Positions 15,766 to 42,001 are shown, counted from the stretch's first letter. The stretch: DNA of 64,000 nucleotides from a bacterium (GCA_965200245.1 CBDATS010000004.1:1280001-1344000), one strand, 5' to 3'. Made by a program: numbers and translations. Notes: generated by a model not told the origin, from the sequence alone.

Positions 15766-16968
15766 ATGAACCGAAAGACGGGCGGGCCCCTGGAAGGCGT
15801 ACGCGTCCTGGAGGTCTGCCAGGTAATGGCCGGCCCGTTCTGTGGGTGTCTGCTGGCCGACATGGGCGCGGACGTCATCAAGATCGAAAACCCGGACGGC
15901 GGCGACAGCGCGCGCCATCTGGGGCGTTATTTCGACGGCGGCGAGGCGCATGGTTTCATGAACCTGAATCGCAATAAGCGCAGCGTTGCGGTGAACATGA
16001 AAGCGCACGAGGGCGTCGCGCTCATGAAAGAACTGGCCCGGAAAGTCGACGTGTTCGTTGAGAATATACGGCCCGGCATCATGACGAGACTCGGTCTGGG
16101 CTATGAGGACCTGAAAGAACTCAATCCGGGCCTCATCTACGCATCCATCTCCGGTTACGGCGATACGGGGCCTTTCGCGGGCAAGGGCGGGTTCGATCTC
16201 GTCTCGCAGGGACTTTCGAGCCTCATGAGCTTCACGGGCGAGCCCGGCGGCGCGCCCGCAAAGATACCCGTGCCGATATGCGATCTGAACGCAGGGATGT
16301 ACACGGCGTTCTCGATTCTCTCGGCCTATATCCATAAACAGCGCACCGGACAGGGCCAGCGCATCGACGTGGCGCTGACCGACGCAGGCCTGGGCTACAC
16401 CTTCTGGCAGGCATCGCAGTTCTTCCCGTCCGGAGAGCCACCGGAACCTCTCGGCTCAGCGCACGAGATGACGGCGCCCTATCAGGCTTTTCAGTGCAGG
16501 GATGGTTACCTGGCTCTCGGCGCCGCCAACCAGAGAAACTGGGAACTCTTCTGCGCAACTATCGGGAGAGAAGACCTTCTGGAACGGGAAGAATACGCCA
16601 CTGACGGCTTGAGACGCGAAAACTATCTCGCACTCGCGGGGGAACTCGGAGAGGTGTTCATTGAAAAGACACGCGACGAATGGGTGGCGCTTCTGGATTC
16701 GGGCGGCATCCCCTGCGGGCCGATTCTCAACATGGAAGAAACCTTCGCGCATCCCCAGATTCAGGCGAGGGAAATGAGCGTCGAGATAGAGCACCCCGCG
16801 GCGGGCCGAATGCGGGTTCTGGGCTTTCCGCCCAAACTGTCCGGGACGCGCGTCGGTGTTCGTACGCCCGCGCCCCTGCTGGGCGAGCACACCGACGAGG
16901 TGCTGCGTGAGTTCGGAGCCAGCGAGGATGAAATAAACAACTTGCGGGCAGCGGGCTTCGTGGCCTGA
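15766..16968 (+). CDS. Class III CoA-transferase (CaiB/BaiF)
   Basis: AGPFCGCLLADMGADVIKIE, NRNKRS, PLLGEHTDEVL. Confidence 0.92.
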   Translation: MNRKTGGPLEGVRVLEVCQVMAGPFCGCLLADMGADVIKIENPDGGDSARHLGRYFDGGEAHGFMNLNRNKRSVAVNMKAHEGVALMKELARKVDVFVENIRPGIMTRLGLGYEDLKELNPGLIYASISGYGDTGPFAGKGGFDLVSQGLSSLMSFTGEPGGAPAKIPVPICDLNAGMYTAFSILSAYIHKQRTGQGQRIDVALTDAGLGYTFWQASQFFPSGEPPEPLGSAHEMTAPYQAFQCRDGYLALGAANQRNWELFCATIGREDLLEREEYATDGLRRENYLALAGELGEVFIEKTRDEWVALLDSGGIPCGPILNMEETFAHPQIQAREMSVEIEHPAAGRMRVLGFPPKLSGTRVGVRTPAPLLGEHTDEVLREFGASEDEINNLRAAGFVA

Positions 16969-20228: not shown

Positions 20229-21428
20229 CTAGATGATGCCCTTGTCTTTTAGGCCAGCGATTGCCGCGCTGTCGTAACCGATACTTTCCAGCACCTCGTC
20301 GGTGTGTTTGCCCATCGGAGGTCCTGCCCAGCGGATGCCGCCCGGCGAGCCGTTCAGCCTCGGAATGACGTTTTGCATCTTGATGGGTCCGAGTTCTTCA
20401 TCCTCCACGGTGGTGATGGTCCCGCGCGCCTGCACGTGGGGGTCCGCCATGAACTGGGCCACGTCGTAAATGGGGCCCAGGGCGCATTCGTGTTTCTCGA
20501 AATGGGCGATCGTCTCATCAAGCGCGTGTTTGCCTATCCAGTCCTGGATGGCGTCGTCGAGTTCGGCCATGTTCTCCACCCGGCCCGCCTGGGTCGCCAT
20601 CCTCGGGTTGTCGCCCAGGTCCTCACGCCCCACGGCGCGCATGACGCGCCTGAAGATGTTCTCCGCACTTGCGGATATCACGACATAGCGCCCGTCCTTG
20701 CATCGGTAAGTGTTTCTCGGTGCAGCGAAGGGAATGGCGTTTCCCGTGCGAGTCTGGATGTAGCCGAGCTGGTCGTATTCGATCGGCTGAGGACCCAGCA
20801 CCATGGTGATGGGCTCGAAAATGGCGATGTCGATTTCCTGGCCGGGCGCGTCGTGCACGTCGCGGTGGTAGAGTGCCATCATCACGGCGTAGGTGCCGCA
20901 CAGCGCACTGATGCCATCGGCCAGGGCGAAGGGTGGCAGTGTGGGTGGTCCGTCGGGAAACCCCGTGATGTGCGCGAAGCCGCTCATCGCCTCGGCAAGT
21001 GTGCCGAAACCGGGCCTTTGTGCGTAGGGGCCCTTCTGTCCGAAACCGCTCGTTCGCGCGAGGATGAGCCTAGGGTTGAGAGCATGGAGACTTTCCCAGG
21101 AAAAGCCCCATCTTTCCATCGTGCCGGGGCGGAAATTCTCCACCAGGACGTCCGCGCTTTCACACAGCTTGCGGACGATCTCCTGTCCTTCGGGCGAGGA
21201 GATGTTGCAGGTGATGGACTTCTTGTTCCGGCTCGCCAGTTTCCACCAGAGCGAGACGCCGTCCTTCTGGGAAGCGAAGTTTCTGAGCGAATCACCGCGT
21301 GGGTGCTCTATTTTGATGACATCGGCTCCGAAATCTGCCATATAGGTGGCTATCCAGGGGCCGGCGAACAGGGTTCCTATGTCGATGACCCGCACGCCTT
21401 CGAGCGGCATTTTGTTGTGTTCATTCAT
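20229..21428 (-). CDS. Class III CoA-transferase (CaiB/BaiF)
   Basis: AGPWIATYMADFGADVIKIE, ENFRPGTMERWG; start moved to ATG 21428. Confidence 0.92.
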   Translation of the reverse strand: MNEHNKMPLEGVRVIDIGTLFAGPWIATYMADFGADVIKIEHPRGDSLRNFASQKDGVSLWWKLASRNKKSITCNISSPEGQEIVRKLCESADVLVENFRPGTMERWGFSWESLHALNPRLILARTSGFGQKGPYAQRPGFGTLAEAMSGFAHITGFPDGPPTLPPFALADGISALCGTYAVMMALYHRDVHDAPGQEIDIAIFEPITMVLGPQPIEYDQLGYIQTRTGNAIPFAAPRNTYRCKDGRYVVISASAENIFRRVMRAVGREDLGDNPRMATQAGRVENMAELDDAIQDWIGKHALDETIAHFEKHECALGPIYDVAQFMADPHVQARGTITTVEDEELGPIKMQNVIPRLNGSPGGIRWAGPPMGKHTDEVLESIGYDSAAIAGLKDKGII

Positions 21429-33462: not shown

Positions 33463-33620
33463 CAAAACGACCTCCTGTCTGGGGACGGGCGACACACCCG
33501 TCCGGAAAATGCGGGCGGCCCCATACGGGCGCACACGGTGGTTTTGCCGGGACGCTTCTTGGAGCTTATATTGAATAACGTATACAGGAGCGCATTTCCA
33601 CGCCGTCAGGGAGATTCGAC

Positions 33621-33872
33621 GTGAAACTGGACGCCGTGAAATTCGGTCTGGCCGCAGGCATCATCTACGGGGCCCTGTTTTTCCTGTACGCTCTGTTGGG
33701 CGCGCTGTTCGGCGTCGGCGGGGAAATGCTGAAAGTGATAGGCGATTTTCATCCAGGCGTTTCCCCCACCTATCCGGGAGCGATCATCGGCGCGGCCTGG
33801 GGATTCGCGATAGGTTTTCTTTTCTTCGCAGTACTGGCGTGGATATACAACCGCCTGCTGGGCAGGGAGTAG
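33621..33872 (+). CDS. Small two-TM membrane protein (holin-like/DUF family)
   Basis: MKLDAVKFGLAAG ... GAIIGAAWGFAIG ... AWIYN. Confidence 0.65.
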   Translation: MKLDAVKFGLAAGIIYGALFFLYALLGALFGVGGEMLKVIGDFHPGVSPTYPGAIIGAAWGFAIGFLFFAVLAWIYNRLLGRE

Positions 33873-34132
33873 CGACTTCCTGGCGGGGCCGTCGAAAAAA
33901 TCCGGGAATTGTATACTTGAATCCACAAGCCTGAACACCTGAATTCAAGAAAACGGACCCTTCGGCCACCGTTTTCCCGGGAGAAAGCCCGTTCCTCACC
34001 GCAAAAACGAGAAAAACGTCAAAAAACTTCTTGCTTTCCCACCGGAATATCCCATACCTAGTTCATGATAACGATGCAAAAAGGCGTAGTGGATATGAAC
34101 CCATCCTCATTTCTCCAGGAAAGGAACCCAGA

Positions 34133-34399
34133 ATGAAATCTGCTGCCGAGATGCGCGAGCACCTGATCGAGAAGGCTAGCGACAGTGAGGAGTTCCGTGC
34201 CCGTCTTATCTCCGATCCGAAGGCCGTGATATCGGAGGAGTTAGGAGTAGCGATGCCGGAGAATTTCAACCTGCATGTGATGGAGGACGACGCCGAGAAC
34301 AGCTATCTCGTCCTTCCGCCTGCGTCCCAGCTCACCGAGGAAGATCTGGAAGCCGCTCAAGGCGCATTTTATCATGAAGATGGAACTCCGTGGGTCTGA
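34133..34399 (+). CDS. NHLP (nitrile hydratase leader) RiPP precursor 1; predicted core FYHEDGTPWV
   Basis: AAGGA RBS, ATG 34133; leader KA..DEEFRARLISDPKAVI..ELG..P...LHVMED....YLVLPP, then LTEEDLEAAQGA cleavage motif. Confidence 0.9.
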   Translation: MKSAAEMREHLIEKASDSEEFRARLISDPKAVISEELGVAMPENFNLHVMEDDAENSYLVLPPASQLTEEDLEAAQGAFYHEDGTPWV

Positions 34400-34600
34400 T
34401 CTGTGTGATGAGGAACAGCCGGAAACCGTTCCCGGCGGATATTTGCAGAATTGAGGTCGTGATCCCTGTACGAAAAAAGCTGACACGAACATACGCGAAC
34501 CTACAATGGAAACAGATTCAACCTTCAGGTCTCGGTGGCCTGCAGGGTTTCTCAGGGTGTTGTTGCCCTGAATGCCGGTTGTCAAAAAGGAGACGGGAAA

Positions 34601-34882
34601 ATGGCTGGCGAGTTCCAGGCCGTGGACGAATTTCATGATTATCTGCGCAACAGGGCGGTAGAGGACGAGGCGTTCAGGGCCCGCCTGCTGTCCGATCCCA
34701 GGATGGTGATAGAAGAAGAGCTGGACATGACCATTCCGGAAGGCTTCAGCATCGAGGTGCACGAGGACACGGCCGCGACCGCTCACCTGGTGCTTCCGCC
34801 TTCGGCAGTGCTCGCCGAAGAGGACCTGCAAGCCGTCAGCGGGGGCGATATGGACTGGTGCACGTCATCGGGGGCGGTATGA
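34601..34882 (+). CDS. NHLP RiPP precursor 2; predicted core DMDWCTSSGAV
   Basis: AAGGAG RBS, ATG 34601; RAVEDEAFRARLLSDP...VHEDTAATAHLVLPP...LAEEDLQAVSGG double-Gly site. Confidence 0.9.
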   Translation: MAGEFQAVDEFHDYLRNRAVEDEAFRARLLSDPRMVIEEELDMTIPEGFSIEVHEDTAATAHLVLPPSAVLAEEDLQAVSGGDMDWCTSSGAV

Positions 34883-34946
34883 GCTGGCGCAGTCCCATCT
34901 AAATGACCAGCGGTCACGACTGAATCGAAAGCAGGGACACACGCAC

Positions 34947-36128
34947 TTGTCTGACGGATTTCAGTTTCGCCAGCAACAGCGCGATAGCCTGTCCTTCGGG
35001 AGTTTTCTCGCAGGAATGAGGCAAATGTTTCCGTCGGCCCTGTTGAGCGGCGGAGGGTGGGAACGTATTCAGGTCATGGCGGAACGGCTGCCTGTTGATG
35101 TGATCGACCAGCCGTTCGGTTTCGAGTTTGATCTTGACCGAGAATCGGCCAAGGCTGACTTCTGTGTATGCCCGGCGAGCGGCTTCGCCCTTGCCGGGCA
35201 CTACATTCGTGAGGGGGCCGAGGCACCAGAAGGTTCTGCCGCGGCTGCCCTTGGTGCTTGTCTTGCCCGAGATGAGGACGACCCCGTTTCGTTTCTGTCA
35301 CGCAGAGACGGTGGTATTATTCTTGAGTACGACGTGCCGGATGTGCTCCCGGAGGAGCCGGCAGTTCCGGGTGTCTTCTTCGTGCCCCGTGCCAAGACTG
35401 CAAGTGCTGCCCGGAAGCTCCACGACGATCCATCGGAAACCGTGGCCGCACTTTGGGATGTGGCCGCCTGGCGCGCTGACGCCGAGGAACTGCGCTAGGT
35501 CCAACGGGTATACGAGGCTCTCTCCGGTGCCAGTTACTTTGTTCAGGCGGGCGTGTTACCGGGGCGGCAGCAGCGCGCGGTGCGTCTGGCAGTGCATCGT
35601 ATAGACACCGCCGAACTTCCCGGTCTGCTCGAACAACTGCGCTGGCCGGGCTCTCCTGACGCGGTTATGTCAGTAATCGCGGATACGGAAGACCTTACCC
35701 AACCCGGTAGCGTGCTCAGTCTTGATGCCGCCGCGAGCGGCATTTCGCCGCGCGTGGGGCTGGAATTGTTTCGTTCCGTGGAGAGGGCTCGCGTCGACCA
35801 TGCAGGTTGGCAGCCGATGATCAATCGGTTGGCGGACAGGTCGTGTTGTGTGCCTGCGAAGGCCGAGGGCCTGCGCGCGTGGCCGCGTGCCGAGCGGTTG
35901 CTCGGCCCCGGTGGCGTCTATCGGCTTCATTTGACCATCAGCCACATCAAGGTGAGCTTTCCGGGTTTCGCGCCGCGCTTGTCGGCATCTCATGTGCCGA
36001 TCAGACGTCCGCCTCGCCTGGGTGAGCACACCAGTGAACTGTTGGGCACCGAACTCGCGTTGGACGATGCGCAGATCGATGCACTGCGAGACGCCGGGGT
36101 GATCGGCGGCCCGCCGCCATCCGATTGA
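34947..36128 (+). pseudogene. Putative RiPP maturase (prenyltransferase-like, inferred), interrupted by in-frame TAG and fused to a class III CoA-transferase tail
   Basis: ORFs 34947..35498 and 35553..36128 share one frame across TAG 35496-35498. Motifs FGFEFDL, ILEYD, PRVGLE, SHIKV; last ~55 aa match CaiB-type C-termini. Confidence 0.6.
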
Positions 36129-36153
36129 CTTCCCAGACGCCTGGAGGAGGGAT

Positions 36154-37369
36154 ATGCCGGCACTGGATGGAATGAAAGTCCTCGACATGACCCAGTACGA
36201 GGCGGGCCCAGCGTGCACGCAACTCCTGGCGTGGTTCGGGGCGGAGGTAGTCAAGGTCGAGTCTCCCGAACGAGGCGATGGAGCCCGCGTTTTCTCCCGG
36301 GGGGGGCGGCTCCAAAGGTTACGCAGCTTTCTTCTGCGCCTGGAACGCGAACAAGCGCAGCCTGGCGGTGGACCTCCGCAGCCGGCAGGGTCGGGATCTG
36401 TTTCTGCGTTTGGTACCGCTGTTCGATGTCCTGGTGGAAAACTACGGACCCGGCGTAGTCGAACGATTCGACATCGGCTACGAAAGGCTCAGCGCCATCA
36501 ACCCGGGCCTGATCTGCGCCCGGATCAAGGGCTTCGGTGTCAGTGGCCCCTATTCAGGTTTCCCCAGCGTCGATCCGACGGCGCAAGCGGCCGCGGGGGC
36601 GTTCTCTGTCAACGGCGAGGCGGCCGGGCCGCCGATGATGCCGGGTCCGCTGATGGCTGATTCGGGCACCGGTCTACAGGCGGCGATGGCAGTGCTGGCG
36701 GCTTGGGCGCAGAAGCAGCGGACAGGTGAAGGGCAACTGGTCGAGTTGTCGATGCAGGAGTCGGTAACATACTACCTGCGCTCCCACTTCTTCCGCGCAA
36801 GGGACAGAACGCGGGCGGCGCCGCGCACTGGCAACGTATACGGCCTGCCGCCGGCTGGTCTATATCCGTGCAAACCGTTCGGCGCCAATGACTACATCTA
36901 CCTTCAACCTCTCACCGATGCCCACTGGGACGCTCTGTGCAAGGCCATGGATCGTGACGACATGCGCACCGATCCGCGCTTCTACAGCCAGCGCTGGCGC
37001 CTGCAGAACGCTGACGCGCTGCGCGAAGAGATCGGCGCCTGGGCTGCCGAACGTACCAAATACGAGGCCATGGAGACCATCGCCGGCGCCGGCGTGCCCT
37101 GTTCCGCATGTCTGGATACGATCGATCTGCACCGGGACCGCCACCTGACCGCGCGCGGTTTCATCCACGAACTGGATCTACCGGTGCATGGAAAGGTGCG
37201 AATGCTGGGATTCGCTCCGGGGCCTTCGACATCGTGCGTCACAATGAAGCGCCCGCCCCGCCTCGGCGAGCATACCGACGAAGTACTCAACGAGGAGCTG
37301 GACCTGAGCGACGCGGAACTCAAGGCGCTGCACGACGCTGGTGTCATCCGGAACGCCGCTCGTCAGTAA
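36154..37369 (+). pseudogene. Formyl-CoA transferase-like class III CoA-transferase with +1 frameshift
   Basis: N-terminus ([21 protein letters not shown]) and remainder ([28 protein letters not shown]) are in different frames joined at a G8 run, 36299-36306. Confidence 0.85.
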
Positions 37370-37400
37370 CGGACGGGTTGCCCCCCCGCCAGGTGCACCG

Positions 37401-37640
37401 TTAAGTTATCTGGCGACGCGTCAGGTCGCGAAAGACGCCCGGCATATCGATCAGTTCCGCAAAGGTCCCTTTCCTGCGCCACCCGCCCCTCGTCGAGCAG
37501 GTAGATTCGGTCCACCTTGTGGATAGTGGACAGCCGATGGGCAATGACGATGCGGATGACGGCAAGTTGCTCGATCTGCGCATGATCTCTGCCTGGATGT
37601 TGTTGTCGAGGGAACTGGTGGTCTCGTAGAGCAGCACAGC
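37401..37640 (-). pseudogene. Remnant of an ABC exporter ATPase C-terminus
   Basis: Across frameshifts: LLYETTSSLDNNIQ (degenerate Walker B/D-loop), RIVIAHRLSTI..DRIYLLDEGRV, GTFAELI..PGVFRDLTRRQI. Confidence 0.8.
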
Positions 37641-37846
37641 GCGGCTGTGCTCCAGGCTGGCCAGCGGTGGGCAGGATCGAGGCCATCTGGCGTCGTTGGG
37701 GTATTGCAGTGGAATGCGAAACCGCCAGCATAAACCCGTGGGCTTCGTGGGGCAAAATCCGCACTGCTTCTGAGCGGGCCGGACTATGAAGTATGCAATT
37801 TTCGGTTGCGATTGGCGATATTGACACCTTTGATCTATGATCCAGA

Positions 37847-39223
37847 TTGGGTTCGACCTTGATTGGGCGGCCCTGTCCTGTCAACCTGCGACAGGTGGAA
37901 AAAGTGACTAAATTCGACCGTATTCCTGGCGTGAGCACAAATCGGAAAGACCTTGAGGCGCGATCGTGGGACTTCGGGCGAATGACCCGCAGGATTCCAG
38001 AAGCTGTGACCACGCCGACAACCACCGAGGAAGTGGCCGGGTTCGTGCGCCGGGCGGCCAGAGACGATTTTCAGTTGACTGTTCGAGGGGGAGGTCACTC
38101 CCAGGGTGGACAGAGCCTCACGAACCGGGACCTGATGCTGGACATGAAGGATCTCAATCGCGTCGAACTCCAAGGGACGGAATTCGTACGCGCGCAAGGC
38201 GGTGCACAGTGGGGCAAAGTAGTAGACACGCTGCGCAGTACGCGGCGGCTACCACCGGTACTCAATGACATCGGCGAAGTGACCGTGGGCGGAACGCTGT
38301 CCGCCGGAGGGTTGGGTACCACGTCGCACCGCTACGGGGCGCAGGTCGGACAGGTCGAACAACTCGAGGTGGTGACTGGAACTGGCGAGCGGACACTGTG
38401 CTCGGCGACCCAAAACAAAGAACTCTTCGACGCGGTGAGAGGCGGCCAGGGACAGTTCGGCATTATCACTGAGGCGTGGATCCGGCTGAGACCAGTCGGA
38501 AGCCGGGTTCGCCTGTACGAGCTCCGCTACCTCGACCTCGATCGGTTCGCCAGTGACCTTGAGCAGTTCGCCGCCGGCGACCGCTTCGATCATTTGCGGG
38601 GAGAGGCTAGGGTCCACGAGGGTGAGTTCTTCCTCCACGCCGGTATCGAGTACGACGAGAACCTCGAAGACGCGAAAGCACTGGAAGGATTGCGATTCGA
38701 CGAGGTTGCATCGACAATAGATACGGCGGAAGTCGGACGTGGACTGATATTTCCAACATCAATGTTTTATTGGAAACATCGCCATCCGTGGCGGGACTGG
38801 TTCATGCCATGGGAAACCCTGCGGACGCTGCTCGCCCAACCGTGGCTGGATCACGACTTGTTGCCTCCCGGGCACGGGACCTGGATCGGTGTGTACCCGG
38901 TCAGGACGACGGCAATCAACGCTCCACACTTCATGCATCCGCCGGGGAAACGCATGATTTCTTACTCAATCCTTACTGTAGTAGATGAGAGGGATTTAAT
39001 GCGTGCGTATCGGCTGGTGAGCAAACTGGACGAGATCGATAAGACTCTCGTCGGACTCGGTGGCAAGAGCTATCTTTCAGGTGGTGTGCGTTACGGGCCC
39101 ACGCAGTGGGCGCAGCACTATGAAGACATGCTAACGAGGGCCATTGGATGGAAGCGGGAATTCGATCCCTTGCAGGTATTTCATAGCAACGGTATGCCGT
39201 TCGGCAATGACAGGTCGTCTTGA
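37847..39223 (+). CDS. FAD-linked oxidoreductase, VAO/BBE superfamily (cytokinin dehydrogenase-like)
   Basis: VRGGGHSQGGQS, TVGGTLSAGG, GGQGQFGIIT, HPW, KREFDP; true start probably a later GTG such as 37931. Confidence 0.85.
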   Translation: MGSTLIGRPCPVNLRQVEKVTKFDRIPGVSTNRKDLEARSWDFGRMTRRIPEAVTTPTTTEEVAGFVRRAARDDFQLTVRGGGHSQGGQSLTNRDLMLDMKDLNRVELQGTEFVRAQGGAQWGKVVDTLRSTRRLPPVLNDIGEVTVGGTLSAGGLGTTSHRYGAQVGQVEQLEVVTGTGERTLCSATQNKELFDAVRGGQGQFGIITEAWIRLRPVGSRVRLYELRYLDLDRFASDLEQFAAGDRFDHLRGEARVHEGEFFLHAGIEYDENLEDAKALEGLRFDEVASTIDTAEVGRGLIFPTSMFYWKHRHPWRDWFMPWETLRTLLAQPWLDHDLLPPGHGTWIGVYPVRTTAINAPHFMHPPGKRMISYSILTVVDERDLMRAYRLVSKLDEIDKTLVGLGGKSYLSGGVRYGPTQWAQHYEDMLTRAIGWKREFDPLQVFHSNGMPFGNDRSS

Positions 39224-39665
39224 GAGTCTGTTTCATACCAAACCAACAAACCAATCATCCACCAGTGTTTGTGGCTGGGTTCACTGTTGCCTGGTGTCGT
39301 CTCCGGGGGATGCCGTGCGGTTGATTGGTGAAGTCCTTCCAGACCTCGCCGCCAGTGACCTAGACCTCATGTGTTGTTCCTTGGCTTTATAGGTTTTGTG
39401 GTGGTCGGCCTGGGTTTTGTGATTTTTCAACTCGTCATACGAAGTGAGATCGGAGAAGTGCGATGTAATGCCCCCACGGTTTGTTTTATTGGAATGGCCG
39501 CGACGCGCCCTACCCTCCCCCATATGTCCACAGACAGAAAACTTGATCGCGATCACGACCGAACCTTGGCCTAAATCGTCTGGCCCGTCCGTTACGGTAA
39601 CCAAGTCAGACAAGGGGTTGTCCACATTGTCTGCATCGACAAAACGACACCGGCGGCTGCCACGT

Positions 39666-40757
39666 TCAGGCTGTATGGGCTTCCTGTGCCATTGATCGGC
39701 TCAACCGGCGATATTCACCGAACGAAATGAGCTTGCCTCGCTGTTCGTCCCAGAGCGCGAGATTCAGCGACTTGAACCCTTCCCGCAACGTGATTCGATG
39801 GGCGGACCACAACTCCGGATTCTCGTCGTGACAGCGTTGCAACCGGTAGTTTGGGATGCGAGGACTCAGATGGTGCACGTGATGCAAGCCGAAGCTGGCG
39901 GTCAGCCACTGCAACGGTTTCGGGAGTGCGAGCCATGACGAGCCCTGCAATCCTGCGTCGAAGAAATCCCACTCGCCGGCCCTGCACCAGTAGGCGTCTT
40001 CGAACTGATGCTGCGTGTGGTTCATCCAGCCAGCGATCGCGCATCCGTAAAGCATGATCATGCCCTGGATGATCAGGACATGCAGGAGAGTTTCGACACC
40101 GGCGGCCAGCCAGATGCCCGCCAGCAATACCGCTAGGGCGGCGTTGGTTCGCCATACCGAGCGTCGTTCCCGCGTCTAGGAACGCGGTATGCCGAATGTA
40201 AAACGGTGCACGACCACGAACTTCAAAGTAATAAGGATACCGATCATCACGATGGGATTGCGAAGCAAGCGGTACGCGAGCCGGCCCCTCCACTCCCGCG
40301 CACTGTATTGGGCTGTCGTGAGGGTGAGGATATCACCGCCCCTGTGACTGTCCAGTTTGCCCGAGTCCGCATGATGAAATGCGTGAGTCGTATTCCAGTA
40401 GTCGTAGGGGTTGAGGACCAGCACCGCGAGCGCGTTACCGACAGCGTCGCATGCCCGTCGCGACGTGAAATAGGAGCCGTGGCCGCAGTCATGCTGAATG
40501 ACGATCAGCCGCACCATCAAACCCGCCGCAGGCAAGGCGATGATCGCGGTCGCCCAATAGCCGATCTCCACACTCTGGAGCAATACGACCCACGCGAGGC
40601 CGTACAGGATCAGGGTGACTGCCAGTTGCGACAGACTGCGGCGATTGTCCGCCCCTTCGTAGGGAGCCAATATCTGTCTCCACCGTTCCTTCTACATCGC
40701 CTGGCGGATCAACAGGTCAAGGGTACCTAGGGTTGCGTTAGCGGGTTTGGAGGCCAC
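39666..40757 (-). pseudogene. Membrane fatty acid desaturase with in-frame TAG codons
   Basis: His boxes HDCGH, HAFHH, HHVHH; one frame from GTG 40757 (AGGAG RBS) with TAG at 40692-40694 and 40176-40178. Confidence 0.85.
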
Positions 40758-41636
40758 TGTATTTCTCCTGGATTTCCTTGAACGGGTTTGGCCTGAAAGG
40801 TCGTGTCCCCTTTCGGGCGCGCTCAGTCAACCATGGGCGAAGCACCTAGCCCTCGTGTCTCCTCAGTTTGAGGCGGAACCTCGCCCGAAATTATGAGCCG
40901 GATATTTCATTTTCTGTCCACGCATCATCAAACGTACGCCGAAAAGCGAGCATCCTTGAATAATTCTCATAATACAATATTTATATTGGATTTCAAGAAA
41001 AAACAGTGTTTCAGTTGGGACGGGGACCTACCGGATTCATTGACCAGAAAATTCAGACTGAGACGCTGTCGATATCGATTTGTACGTATTGCATCGACAA
41101 GGATAATGCATTCTAGGCTGGAGATTGCCTGAAAACGAGGGATATGTCCCAAGGGGTGTGGGATTTGTCGGTGACGAGTTCCTGTGTGGAATATTCCAAA
41201 CGGCCCGCTGGAGATGTTTGACAGGTTCGGACAATTTACCCGATGGCGTTGGTCGATCACATGGGTTCGTTGCAGGACGCTGGTCAGTCCCGGCCTCGTG
41301 TGTGATTCTTGCGCAATGCGGGTCGGCGCTGCCTGCGGGCAGTGCGGTCATCAGTTGATTTCGAGATGCGTTTGCATGAAGAGATGCCGCTATTCAACAT
41401 GTCAATCGATGTGCCGCGCAATGCACCGATCACTGACTATGTGACAGAATGCGGTCAGTTCAGCGATGCATGCGAAAGTGATCGGAATCTTCCCTCTCGA
41501 AACGATGAGTTTCGATCCGTTCCCCTGCCTTGTTTTGCGTCCGTTTTCTTGACGAATTTCACATTCCGCAAAAACGCCTTTGCCAGGTTCTCCATTAAAA
41601 CAGGGAATGGCAACTATGTAGTCTGACTTATCGAGC

Positions 41637-41729
41637 TGGCGGAGAGGGAGGGATTCGAACCCTCGAGGCACCTTGTGGGCACCTATACGATTTCCAGTCG
41701 TACTCCTTCGGCCTCTCGGACACCTCTCC
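41637..41729 (-). tRNA. tRNA-Ser (GGA)
   Basis: GGAGAGG acceptor stem, anticodon arm TACGA-CTGGAAA-TCGTA, long variable arm, GGTTCGAATCC T-loop, encoded CCA end. Confidence 0.96.
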
Positions 41730-41867
41730 GCAAGGTGGGGCCGCCACATGAATCATCAGGCGGCCGTGCGGGGGTTTGTATATCACGGAAAATGAGGGGC
41801 TGTCAGTCCGCCGTCTCTGTCGCGTCTTGACTTTTTGCCATTCTTCGCTGATTATTCGAAGCACGTC

Positions 41868-41991
41868 AGAAAGGAGGTGATCCTAATATGAAAATACACT
41901 GTAGGGACGAGGTGACCGGAGCCTAGGGGAGATGCCCTCGGGAGATTCCCACGGGTTCATCTTCGCCCAGGCGAATCCCCACCAGGTCACC
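41868..41991 (+). ncRNA. Candidate structured small RNA containing an extended Shine-Dalgarno and a 12-aa ORF (41888..41926, MKIHCRDEVTGA)
   Basis: AGAAAGGAGGTGATCC then ATG; nested stems GGTGACC/GGTCACC, GGGGA/TCCCC, GATG/CATC, GGGA/TCCC, TTCGCC/GGCGAA. Confidence 0.5.
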
Positions 41992-42001
41992 GAACGATGG
42001 G

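Follow-up and report, generated by a model that had tools for sequence, protein, structure and literature searches.

To our knowledge, prenylation of ribosomally synthesised, post-translationally modified peptides (RiPPs) has so far been tied to three groups of enzymes: the cyanobactin F-family, the ComQ/PalQ enzymes and a few recent lanthipeptide prenyltransferases. The RiPP residues that the F-family prenylates are Tyr, Trp, Arg, His, Ser or Thr, and we know of no family III coenzyme A (CoA)-transferase that acts in a cluster with an NHLP-type precursor. The locus described here lies in a 64,000-nt stretch of the metagenome bin G000 (GCA_965200245.1; G000:C4:1280001-1344000, hereafter the window), where a short-core precursor with an NHLP leader is followed by an unannotated gene, called X in this study, by sequences of two class III CoA-transferases (CaiB1 and CaiB2), by the remnant of an ATP-binding cassette (ABC) exporter, and by genes for a flavin adenine dinucleotide (FAD) oxidase and a membrane desaturase (Table 1).

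X is likened here to several described systems, each taken from the part of the cited paper covered here. It resembles MppC, a soluble α-β-β-α (ABBA) prenyltransferase of ~340 residues that acts on a Nif11-type lanthipeptide precursor after LanM cyclisation, is leader-dependent (a long structured leader is needed) and prenylates one Trp of a short core (PMC12715784; Wakeel, McShan & Agarwal, JACS 2025). Compared with MppC by description only, X loci differ in having NHLP precursors and no LanM, and the covered part of that report describes no CoA-transferase or VAO-type oxidase partner for MppC (PMC12715784). The cyanobactin enzymes are described there as leader-free, acting on excised, mostly macrocyclic cores (PMC12715784). 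With the F-family members (PagF, PirF, DciF) X shares the same predicted barrel (Foldseek E 7.4e-4 for PirF, 6pgm, and 4.7e-3 for DciF, 9lwv), whereas NCBIfam, Pfam and PDB-sequence profile searches gave it no sequence match. PalQ/PalX of Paenibacillus alvei is alike on the substrate side, with an NHLP-type precursor, the short core DNVRRFFW, a prenylated Trp and enhancement by the NHLP domain; PalQ and ComQ, however, have an isoprene-synthase fold rather than an ABBA fold, and a C-terminal Trp is required (PMC10853753). The srp clusters of sponge microbiomes (SrpE core LCCCW, YcaO SrpC, brominase SrpI) share habitat and precursor class with the locus (PMC10286304, PMC10858898), whereas the window cluster and its genome have no YcaO or halogenase. 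No prenyltransferase is mentioned in the covered parts of PMC10286304 and PMC10858898.

The locus was proposed from the DNA alone (the sequence-only reading) as a gene combination not recognised from characterised clusters, and this agrees with the literature searched, which gave no account of an ABBA-type enzyme with NHLP precursors, nor of this combination of genes.

Results

The region at 34.6-40.8 kb of the window is read here as the decayed form of a conserved RiPP cluster, a copy that probably arrived by horizontal transfer; in the cluster X would prenylate the Trp of a short core and its partner enzymes would act afterwards, and we give this reading a probability of roughly 0.6. The observation made in the sequence-only reading was confirmed, with every listed element present subject to four corrections, and its interpretation is partly supported. 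Both precursors, taken from the sequence to carry NHLP leaders, score above the curated cut-off of the leader_NHLP model (TIGR03793; 50.9 bits). Judged by its sequence, precursor B is the one that is cognate to the cluster. With the precursor of an intact locus (L055), the first sequence of the precursor alignment, it shares 71% identity, and W-C is invariant in 9/9 aligned precursors (window B and eight relatives); the Pro kept in the cores of all eight relatives is replaced in precursor B by SSGA.

Table 1 Features at and around the X locus, in coordinates of the window
Feature	Position	Strand	Evidence
Conserved upstream part (~230 bp) of precursor-A repeat unit	33900..34132	+	blastn of 33700-34700 against genome
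Precursor A, NHLP leader + core FYHEDGTPWV after GA, 88 aa	34133..34399	+	TIGR03793, 68.6 bits
Precursor B, NHLP leader + core DMDWCTSSGAV after GG	34601..34882	+	TIGR03793, 58.1 bits
X pseudogene, ABBA-fold prenyltransferase-like (predicted), TAG 35496-35498, 3' end deleted	34947..35954	+	Translation, orthologue alignment
CaiB1 C-terminal remnant, first class III CoA-transferase, in-frame fusion to X	35955..36128	+	TIGR03253/NF003809, tblastn
CaiB2, second class III CoA-transferase, frameshift at G8 run 36299-36306	36154..37369	+	Pfam CoA_transf_3 over two frames
NHLP-type ABC exporter, C-terminal remnant	37366..37764	-	TIGR03797, residues ~150-185 of frame only
VAO/PCMH-type FAD oxidase, cytokinin-dehydrogenase-like, open reading frame intact	37982..39223	+	Pfam FAD_binding_4, 101 bits
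DesA-like membrane fatty-acid desaturase pseudogene, TAGs 40692-40694 and 40176-40178	39666..40811	-	Pfam FA_desaturase, NF052548 on both halves
tRNA-Ser(GGA), flanking cluster just beyond desaturase	41637..41729	-	ARAGORN

The closest relatives of the window X for which loci were available (59-71% identity) come from Vicinamibacterales/Vicinamibacteria and 'Acidobacteria' metagenome-assembled genomes (Acidobacteriota), and the intact loci of the window type belong to another phylum than the window genome. Twelve distinct loci of this type (L054-L061, L092, L093, L095 and L102; L094 lies on the same contig as L056) have the intact order NHLP precursor, X, two class III CoA-transferases, FAD oxidase and ABC exporter. 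A precursor whose 5-10-residue core ends in W-C-[S/T/C]-P-[V/I] was found in 11/12 loci, as was the end of an ABC exporter. Two tandem CoA-transferases follow X in 11 loci, the second being 77-84% identical to that of the window, and the twelfth has a single copy; a FAD oxidase 40-42% identical to that of the window lies directly downstream in 8/12, a homologue of 35-36% identity lies upstream in two more, and a desaturase (67-86% identical) is present in three. At L061 the five genes are spaced by 25-132 bp and flanked by a Mu-type transposase, and in one genome the module is present twice, once beside a transposase. Co-occurrence with NHLP precursors and X in other genomes, on which the sequence-only reading had been made to depend, thus holds for the CoA-transferase pair and for the oxidase (10/12 loci in all) and is weaker for the desaturase. 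A reading from the G000 paralogues alone, in which the CoA-transferases, the oxidase and the desaturase were unrelated neighbours, was overturned by these orthologous loci for the CoA-transferases and the oxidase. In a subfamily whose X is only 31-34% identical (L103, L105, L107 and L108), a cytokinin-dehydrogenase-like oxidase also adjoins X, together with two to five precursors per locus, mostly Trp-terminal; the X-adjacent oxidases of L105 and L107 pass the Cytokin-bind cut-off (34 and 38 bits).

AlphaFold2 gave confident models for an intact X paralogue from G000 (predicted local distance difference test score, pLDDT, 92.7; predicted template modelling score, pTM, 0.92; five ααββ repeats) and for the window-type orthologue of L055 (pLDDT 89.7, pTM 0.89, (ααββ)5 order), and the five repeats and 10-stranded barrel of the ABBA fold are accordingly features of predicted models only. 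Foldseek comparison with the PDB at E≤1e-3 returned 41 matches for the paralogue and 44 for the orthologue, and all among the matches listed are aromatic prenyltransferases, including AmbP1, NphB/Orf2, EpzP, CloQ, DMATS1, CdpNPT, CymD with Trp bound and PirF. The best match of the paralogue was AmbP1 (E 1.1e-7) and that of the orthologue was CymD with bound Trp (E 1.8e-5), although the DMATS/CymD indole prenyltransferases act on free amino acids or small molecules and not on leader-bound peptides. The suggestion in the sequence-only reading that the first enzyme of the locus could prenylate an aromatic residue is thus in keeping with the aromatic-prenyltransferase fold predicted for its intact relatives. 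Neighbours in the ESM Atlas that have a Pfam family belong to Trp_DMAT, PTase_Orf2 or DUF5838, which is a lead only.

Charged or aromatic residues that are invariant or nearly so fall on the predicted barrel strands, several of them in i/i+2 spacing (E50, D61, E112, D114, E256, H318, K320, K335 and Y337), and R191 and K290 are conserved to the same degree. A family profile built from paralogues was searched against 1.84 billion cluster representatives (clustered at 50% identity) and matched 3612 of them at E≤1e-3, of which 2554 also pass E≤1e-10. On these models, X represents a large, unnamed family of ABBA prenyltransferase-like barrels. P0132 (679 aa) and P0150 (694 aa) may be tandem X-X fusions, since each of these members is roughly double the normal size and is hit by the X profile in two stretches. 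Complex prediction for the intact L055 X with its precursor scored 0.18 and 0.25 against a mark of 0.32 and counts neither way on binding.

X homologues were found in 15 of the 22 genomes of the genus and in none of the other genera among the phylum's 51 genomes. Within the genus, 28/30 X loci have an NHLP hit in their 1.5-kb flanks. G000 holds seven full-length copies of X, four of them uninterrupted, besides contig-end duplicates and fragments, and a full-length X stands next to an NHLP precursor at six places (seven when a fragment is included). Beyond the phylum, X was matched at E≤1e-40 in 36 of 401 sampled genomes of the class that holds the L058 genome, with an NHLP hit within ~3 kb in 16 of 20 loci examined.

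One orthologue group of X in the genus adjoins cores such as TQTWQDFANAWNSLNQNS. A second (372-375 aa) adjoins srp-type precursors ending in ...AG-LCCCW (LSCCW in 1/10), and therefore a gene of the prenyltransferase fold, as predicted, seems to belong to a widespread srp-type cluster of sponges. Such srp-type loci with an X homologue were seen in related species at L051 (G014:C1:1405500-1425000), L039-L047 and L050; the order in G014 is ABC, a 447-aa NHase-like protein, an 812-aa fusion of FA_desaturase and GlnE-like parts, YcaO and X. The desaturase domain of this fusion has no significant similarity to the window desaturase, and the two were rejected as the same partner.

An intact export set (HlyD, C39-peptidase ABC, second ABC) is present in G000 at C8:219608-225626, where the TIGR03797 score of 685 bits lies just below the cut-off of 709; the precursors have the matching GG-type cleavage sites, GG in B and GA in A. 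Beside this export set are a copy of X interrupted by an in-frame TAG and what remains of a decayed precursor, its end reading ...AGLC (C8:216443-225626, L053). By its sequence L053 appears to be the remains of an srp-type cluster from which YcaO has gone.

The copy of the cluster in the window has been damaged in almost all of its enzyme genes. X, which has no Pfam or NCBIfam match, is a single reading frame interrupted by a TAG where intact orthologues have R or Q; the closest of these (P0152) is 81% identical to the window X, and the orthologues are called 'hypothetical protein' where named. Homology ends after '...SHIKV' (~35954), whereas intact orthologues run ~22 residues past '...HIKV', through an invariant A-K-A-Y strand. 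At a shared K-V the window frame passes without a break into a CoA-transferase, of which the final ~55 codons are left. Because the X frame joins the end of CaiB1 in this way, a single ~1.1-kb deletion is read from the sequence as having taken the end of X and most of CaiB1, and with it the last strand of X with its invariant K-x-Y; the gene is not intact.

The remnant of CaiB1 matches TIGR03253/NF003809 over the last ~45 profile positions only, and residues 326-404 of the intact L055 CaiB1 align to 35886-36125 (tblastn). The CoA_transf_3 sequence noted earlier is real (279 bits in the main frame), and the full CaiB2 gene changes frame at the G8 run: the L055 CaiB2 is 84-88% identical and aligns in frame 1 with its residues 1-51 up to 36306, then from 36308 in frame 2 with residues 51-404. 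Neither CoA-transferase gene of the cluster has an uninterrupted frame in the window. The desaturase is not frameshifted; it has two in-frame TAGs, aligned to Q and W of the intact L055 orthologue, to which it is 77% identical over 374 aa. By these features of its sequence the pathway in the window is dead: X is truncated and carries a nonsense codon, CaiB1 is deleted, CaiB2 has lost its frame, no more than a stump is left of the exporter, and nonsense codons interrupt the desaturase. The earlier view that this copy is decaying is borne out.

Contigs assembled from public runs of two studies, some labelled sponge metagenome, were compared with the window. One contig of run X1 is identical to 34292-35760 (0 differences), spanning the TAG in X, and another to 35735-36113, which holds the junction of X and CoA-transferase; contigs of runs X1 and X3 are identical to 39897-40500, which holds a desaturase TAG, and no indel is listed at the G8 run in the public-run contigs. 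The assembly may itself come from the sample of run X1. RNA-library contigs from two metatranscriptome runs fall on 34292-35758, 38053-38452 and 39897-40800, whereas 35892-37900 has none; this is a weak hint, as neither transcription nor its absence can be read from contigs. Each of the three in-frame stops in the cluster is a TAG, and recoding of this codon was considered and rejected: TAG ends several long open reading frames of the window, and because read-through only adds short tails to many of them it ends real genes. The cluster TAGs align to Q, R or W in orthologues. An ABC ATPase match at C4:1045451-1046050 also carries an in-frame TAG, and therefore pseudogenes may not be confined to this cluster.

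The intact L055 CaiB1 and CaiB2 resemble the family III CoA-transferases Frc/YfdW, with which they align end to end (E 3.6e-64 and 2.8e-66) and with which they share the catalytic Asp of the G-D motif, kept also in 'MADSGTG' of the window. A two-subunit benzylsuccinate CoA-transferase (9fn0 A/B) is among their PDB hits. A 36-residue stretch of the ABC remnant shares 73-86% identity with the end of the ABC gene at four of eight loci, including the L055 copy next to CaiB2, and in the other four a longer stretch matches at 38-43%. The window oxidase scores 20.3 bits against Cytokin-bind, below the Pfam cut-off of 23. Among solved structures its best matches are with cytokinin dehydrogenases (E 4.4e-35), and EncM and berberine-bridge-type enzymes come next. 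Cytokinin dehydrogenases oxidise an N-prenyl side chain, and prenyltransferases are followed by VAO/berberine bridge enzyme-type oxidases in ergot alkaloid, cannabinoid and Morus Diels-Alder pathways.

Precursor A, which had been taken as part of this locus, belongs to a dispersed repeat family instead. It lies inside a ~470-bp unit of 230 bp upstream sequence plus leader (~33900 to ~34370) that recurs at no fewer than 22 further places in the genome at 76-87% identity (blastn; for example C4:1517854-1518304 and C5:32336-32726). Similarity stops exactly at the boundary of leader and core, the core being hypervariable (3-18 residues), and precursor cores throughout G000 have 3-18 residues and are rich in Tyr, Trp and Asp. 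By its leader, precursor A belongs to the largest dispersed precursor family of the genome, and leaders of this type adjoin, among others, the intact X copy at C15:99123-100112. From these sequences, precursor A is a separate dispersed precursor with a hypervariable core, and an intact X paralogue at another place in the genome probably matures it in trans. The repeat resembles a combinatorial precursor library. A search of 33500-35000 with Rfam gave chance matches only and no family for the upstream part of the repeat. Contig depth summed over the leader (34100-34323; runs X1, X3 and X7) was 10-60 times that of neighbouring bins, with a depth of 316 for one of the metatranscriptome libraries. 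A large number of paralogous copies would give such a depth, and strong expression possibly adds to it; contigs cannot separate the two.

The bin G000 measures 3.68 Mb in 15 contigs and is 95.8% complete with 8.1% contamination. It gave 39 NHLP hits, 34 of them above the cut-off, and these numbers, like those of X, are upper bounds because identical precursor and X sequences sit on different contigs (C2:1-8400 and C15:1-2500; C4:571249 and C8:198971; C4:114684 and C15:389839), a pattern that points to contig ends that overlap or to duplicates from different strains. Searches for maturases covered the classes radical SAM, YcaO, LanM DUF4135 and Trp_halogenase. Nineteen radical SAM hits were found genome-wide and none in the window, and neither YcaO nor Trp_halogenase had a hit in the whole genome; LanM DUF4135 had none either, which is weak because that search matched no control genome. 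Proteusins of the polytheonamide kind have a long core that is processed by a radical SAM epimerase, by methyltransferases or by YcaO. The locus is not of this kind, the window being without radical SAM, the genome without YcaO and the cores only 3-18 residues long. The best radical SAM hit of the genome (C8:197448-197933) lies ~1 kb from an NHLP precursor at C8:198971-199171 that ends in ...TTEQRLFKADCMIIPIMAHN, without a GG site.

The cluster is flanked by a tRNA-Ser gene, and G+C content dips to 0.546 in 40001-42000 against ~0.60-0.62 in the flanks; this may mark an island boundary. X of the window type was absent from the other 21 species genomes searched in the genus. Because of this absence, the acidobacterial origin of the closest relatives and the flanking tRNA-Ser, the cluster was probably acquired horizontally and then decayed.

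Discussion

In the intact clusters, X would bind the NHLP precursor and prenylate the conserved Trp of the short core, after which the FAD oxidase would oxidise or cyclise the prenylated residue. The CoA-transferase pair, both members with the catalytic Asp, would act on a carboxylate, which may belong to the peptide or to a co-substrate; a speculative target is the C-terminus of the peptide, always three residues after the invariant Cys. A C39-peptidase ABC exporter would then cut after Gly-Gly and export the product. The gene content, the lesions, the synteny and the predicted fold are observations of the analysis, whereas prenyl transfer, the residue it targets and the parts played by oxidase and CoA-transferases are inferred.

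Several observations weigh against this reading, and those on gene content would fit an alternative in which the RiPP system comprises only precursor, X and ABC, the CoA-transferases, oxidase and desaturase being metabolic neighbours that travel with it. CoA-transferases accompany one X subfamily only (0/15 loci of other subfamilies, and none of the other X loci in G000), and G000 has ~20 class III CoA-transferase paralogues, 27-33% identical to the cluster copy, two more of them inside the window (15790-16962 and 20232-21410). The desaturase is rare among the related loci, and all 12 intact loci come from a single bacterial class and for that reason are not independent. As a cluster partner the oxidase is supported by its recurrence in those loci and less well by the window copy, which is only 35-42% identical to the oxidases of the relatives, against 77-84% for the CoA-transferase, and which from its sequence may not be their orthologue. 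The alternative has to explain, however, why operon-like order and short spacing are kept down to 59% X identity across two phyla, why the module occurs twice in one genome, once with a transposase at its side, and why an oxidase adjoins X independently in a distant subfamily, the group to which this oxidase belongs having known members that process prenyl groups. We regard it as rather unlikely, though it carries real weight.

A further set of adverse points concerns X itself. The structural matches are of moderate similarity (TM-scores 0.41-0.58, root-mean-square deviation 6-9 Å), the conserved residues of the models were placed by strand assignment and not by three-dimensional active-site geometry, 61 X members gave no relevant Pfam or NCBIfam hit at E≤0.1 (PTase_Orf2, Trp_DMAT and DUF5838 included), and a profile search of PDB sequences with X returned nothing relevant at E≤10. 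X might thus have the ABBA barrel and be a leader-binding scaffold, a cyclase or a transferase with another donor, perhaps one made by the CoA-transferases, whose tight link to X is unusual for prenylation. That all solved structures listed at E≤1e-3 are prenyltransferases speaks against this, as do the conserved Lys, Arg, Tyr, His and acidic residues on the predicted barrel strands, which are kept even though most X subfamilies have no CoA-transferases, and we hold such a role to be distinctly unlikely. Maturation of the Tyr/Trp-rich cores in trans by another class of enzyme, for instance a radical SAM cyclophane synthase or a P450, with X as an accessory, is very improbable: the aromatic cores and the radical SAM gene close to the C8 precursor would suit this, but none of the 19 radical SAM hits lies in the window or next to an X locus (P450 genes were outside the search), and the recurrent neighbour of the precursors is X and not a radical SAM enzyme. 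Errors of assembly or sequencing in a cluster that is in truth functional have slimmer prospects still, despite one lesion inside a homopolymer and a contaminated bin with duplicated contig ends, since contigs from two studies agree fully with the window at the TAGs and across the deletion junction, read errors do not typically take the form of a 1.1-kb deletion or a truncated ABC gene, and TAG is a normal stop codon in the window.

Prenylation of the core Trp by X, followed by the action of its partners, remains the reading preferred here. An extension of it, which we consider improbable, is that the intact clusters make a new kind of short lipopeptide signal. In it the Trp, prenylated by a leader-dependent ABBA enzyme, would be oxidised or cyclised by the cytokinin-dehydrogenase-like flavoenzyme, the CoA-transferase pair would turn the C-terminal carboxylate of the peptide into a CoA thioester, and the invariant Cys, in every case four residues from the end, would capture this thioester to give a thiolactone. 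If true, the product would join ComX-like and autoinducing peptide-like chemistry, through the first peptidyl-CoA intermediate in RiPP biosynthesis.

Conclusions

The copy of the cluster in the window is a relic, and its value is as a pointer to intact clusters. The X family is a regular partner of NHLP precursors and recurs in sponge-associated bacteria, next to the srp-type LCCCW precursors that are abundant in sponges. If X prenylates, it would represent a large unmined class of leader-guided peptide lipidation enzymes, would explain how cores mature in a genome with so many NHLP hits and no YcaO, LanM or halogenase, and would offer leader-directed catalysts for peptide engineering. Nothing in the literature searched corresponds to its conserved pairing with a cytokinin-dehydrogenase-like oxidase and two CoA-transferases, and, as far as the predicted models can be followed, the intact relatives look like an undescribed route to lipid-tagged short peptides.

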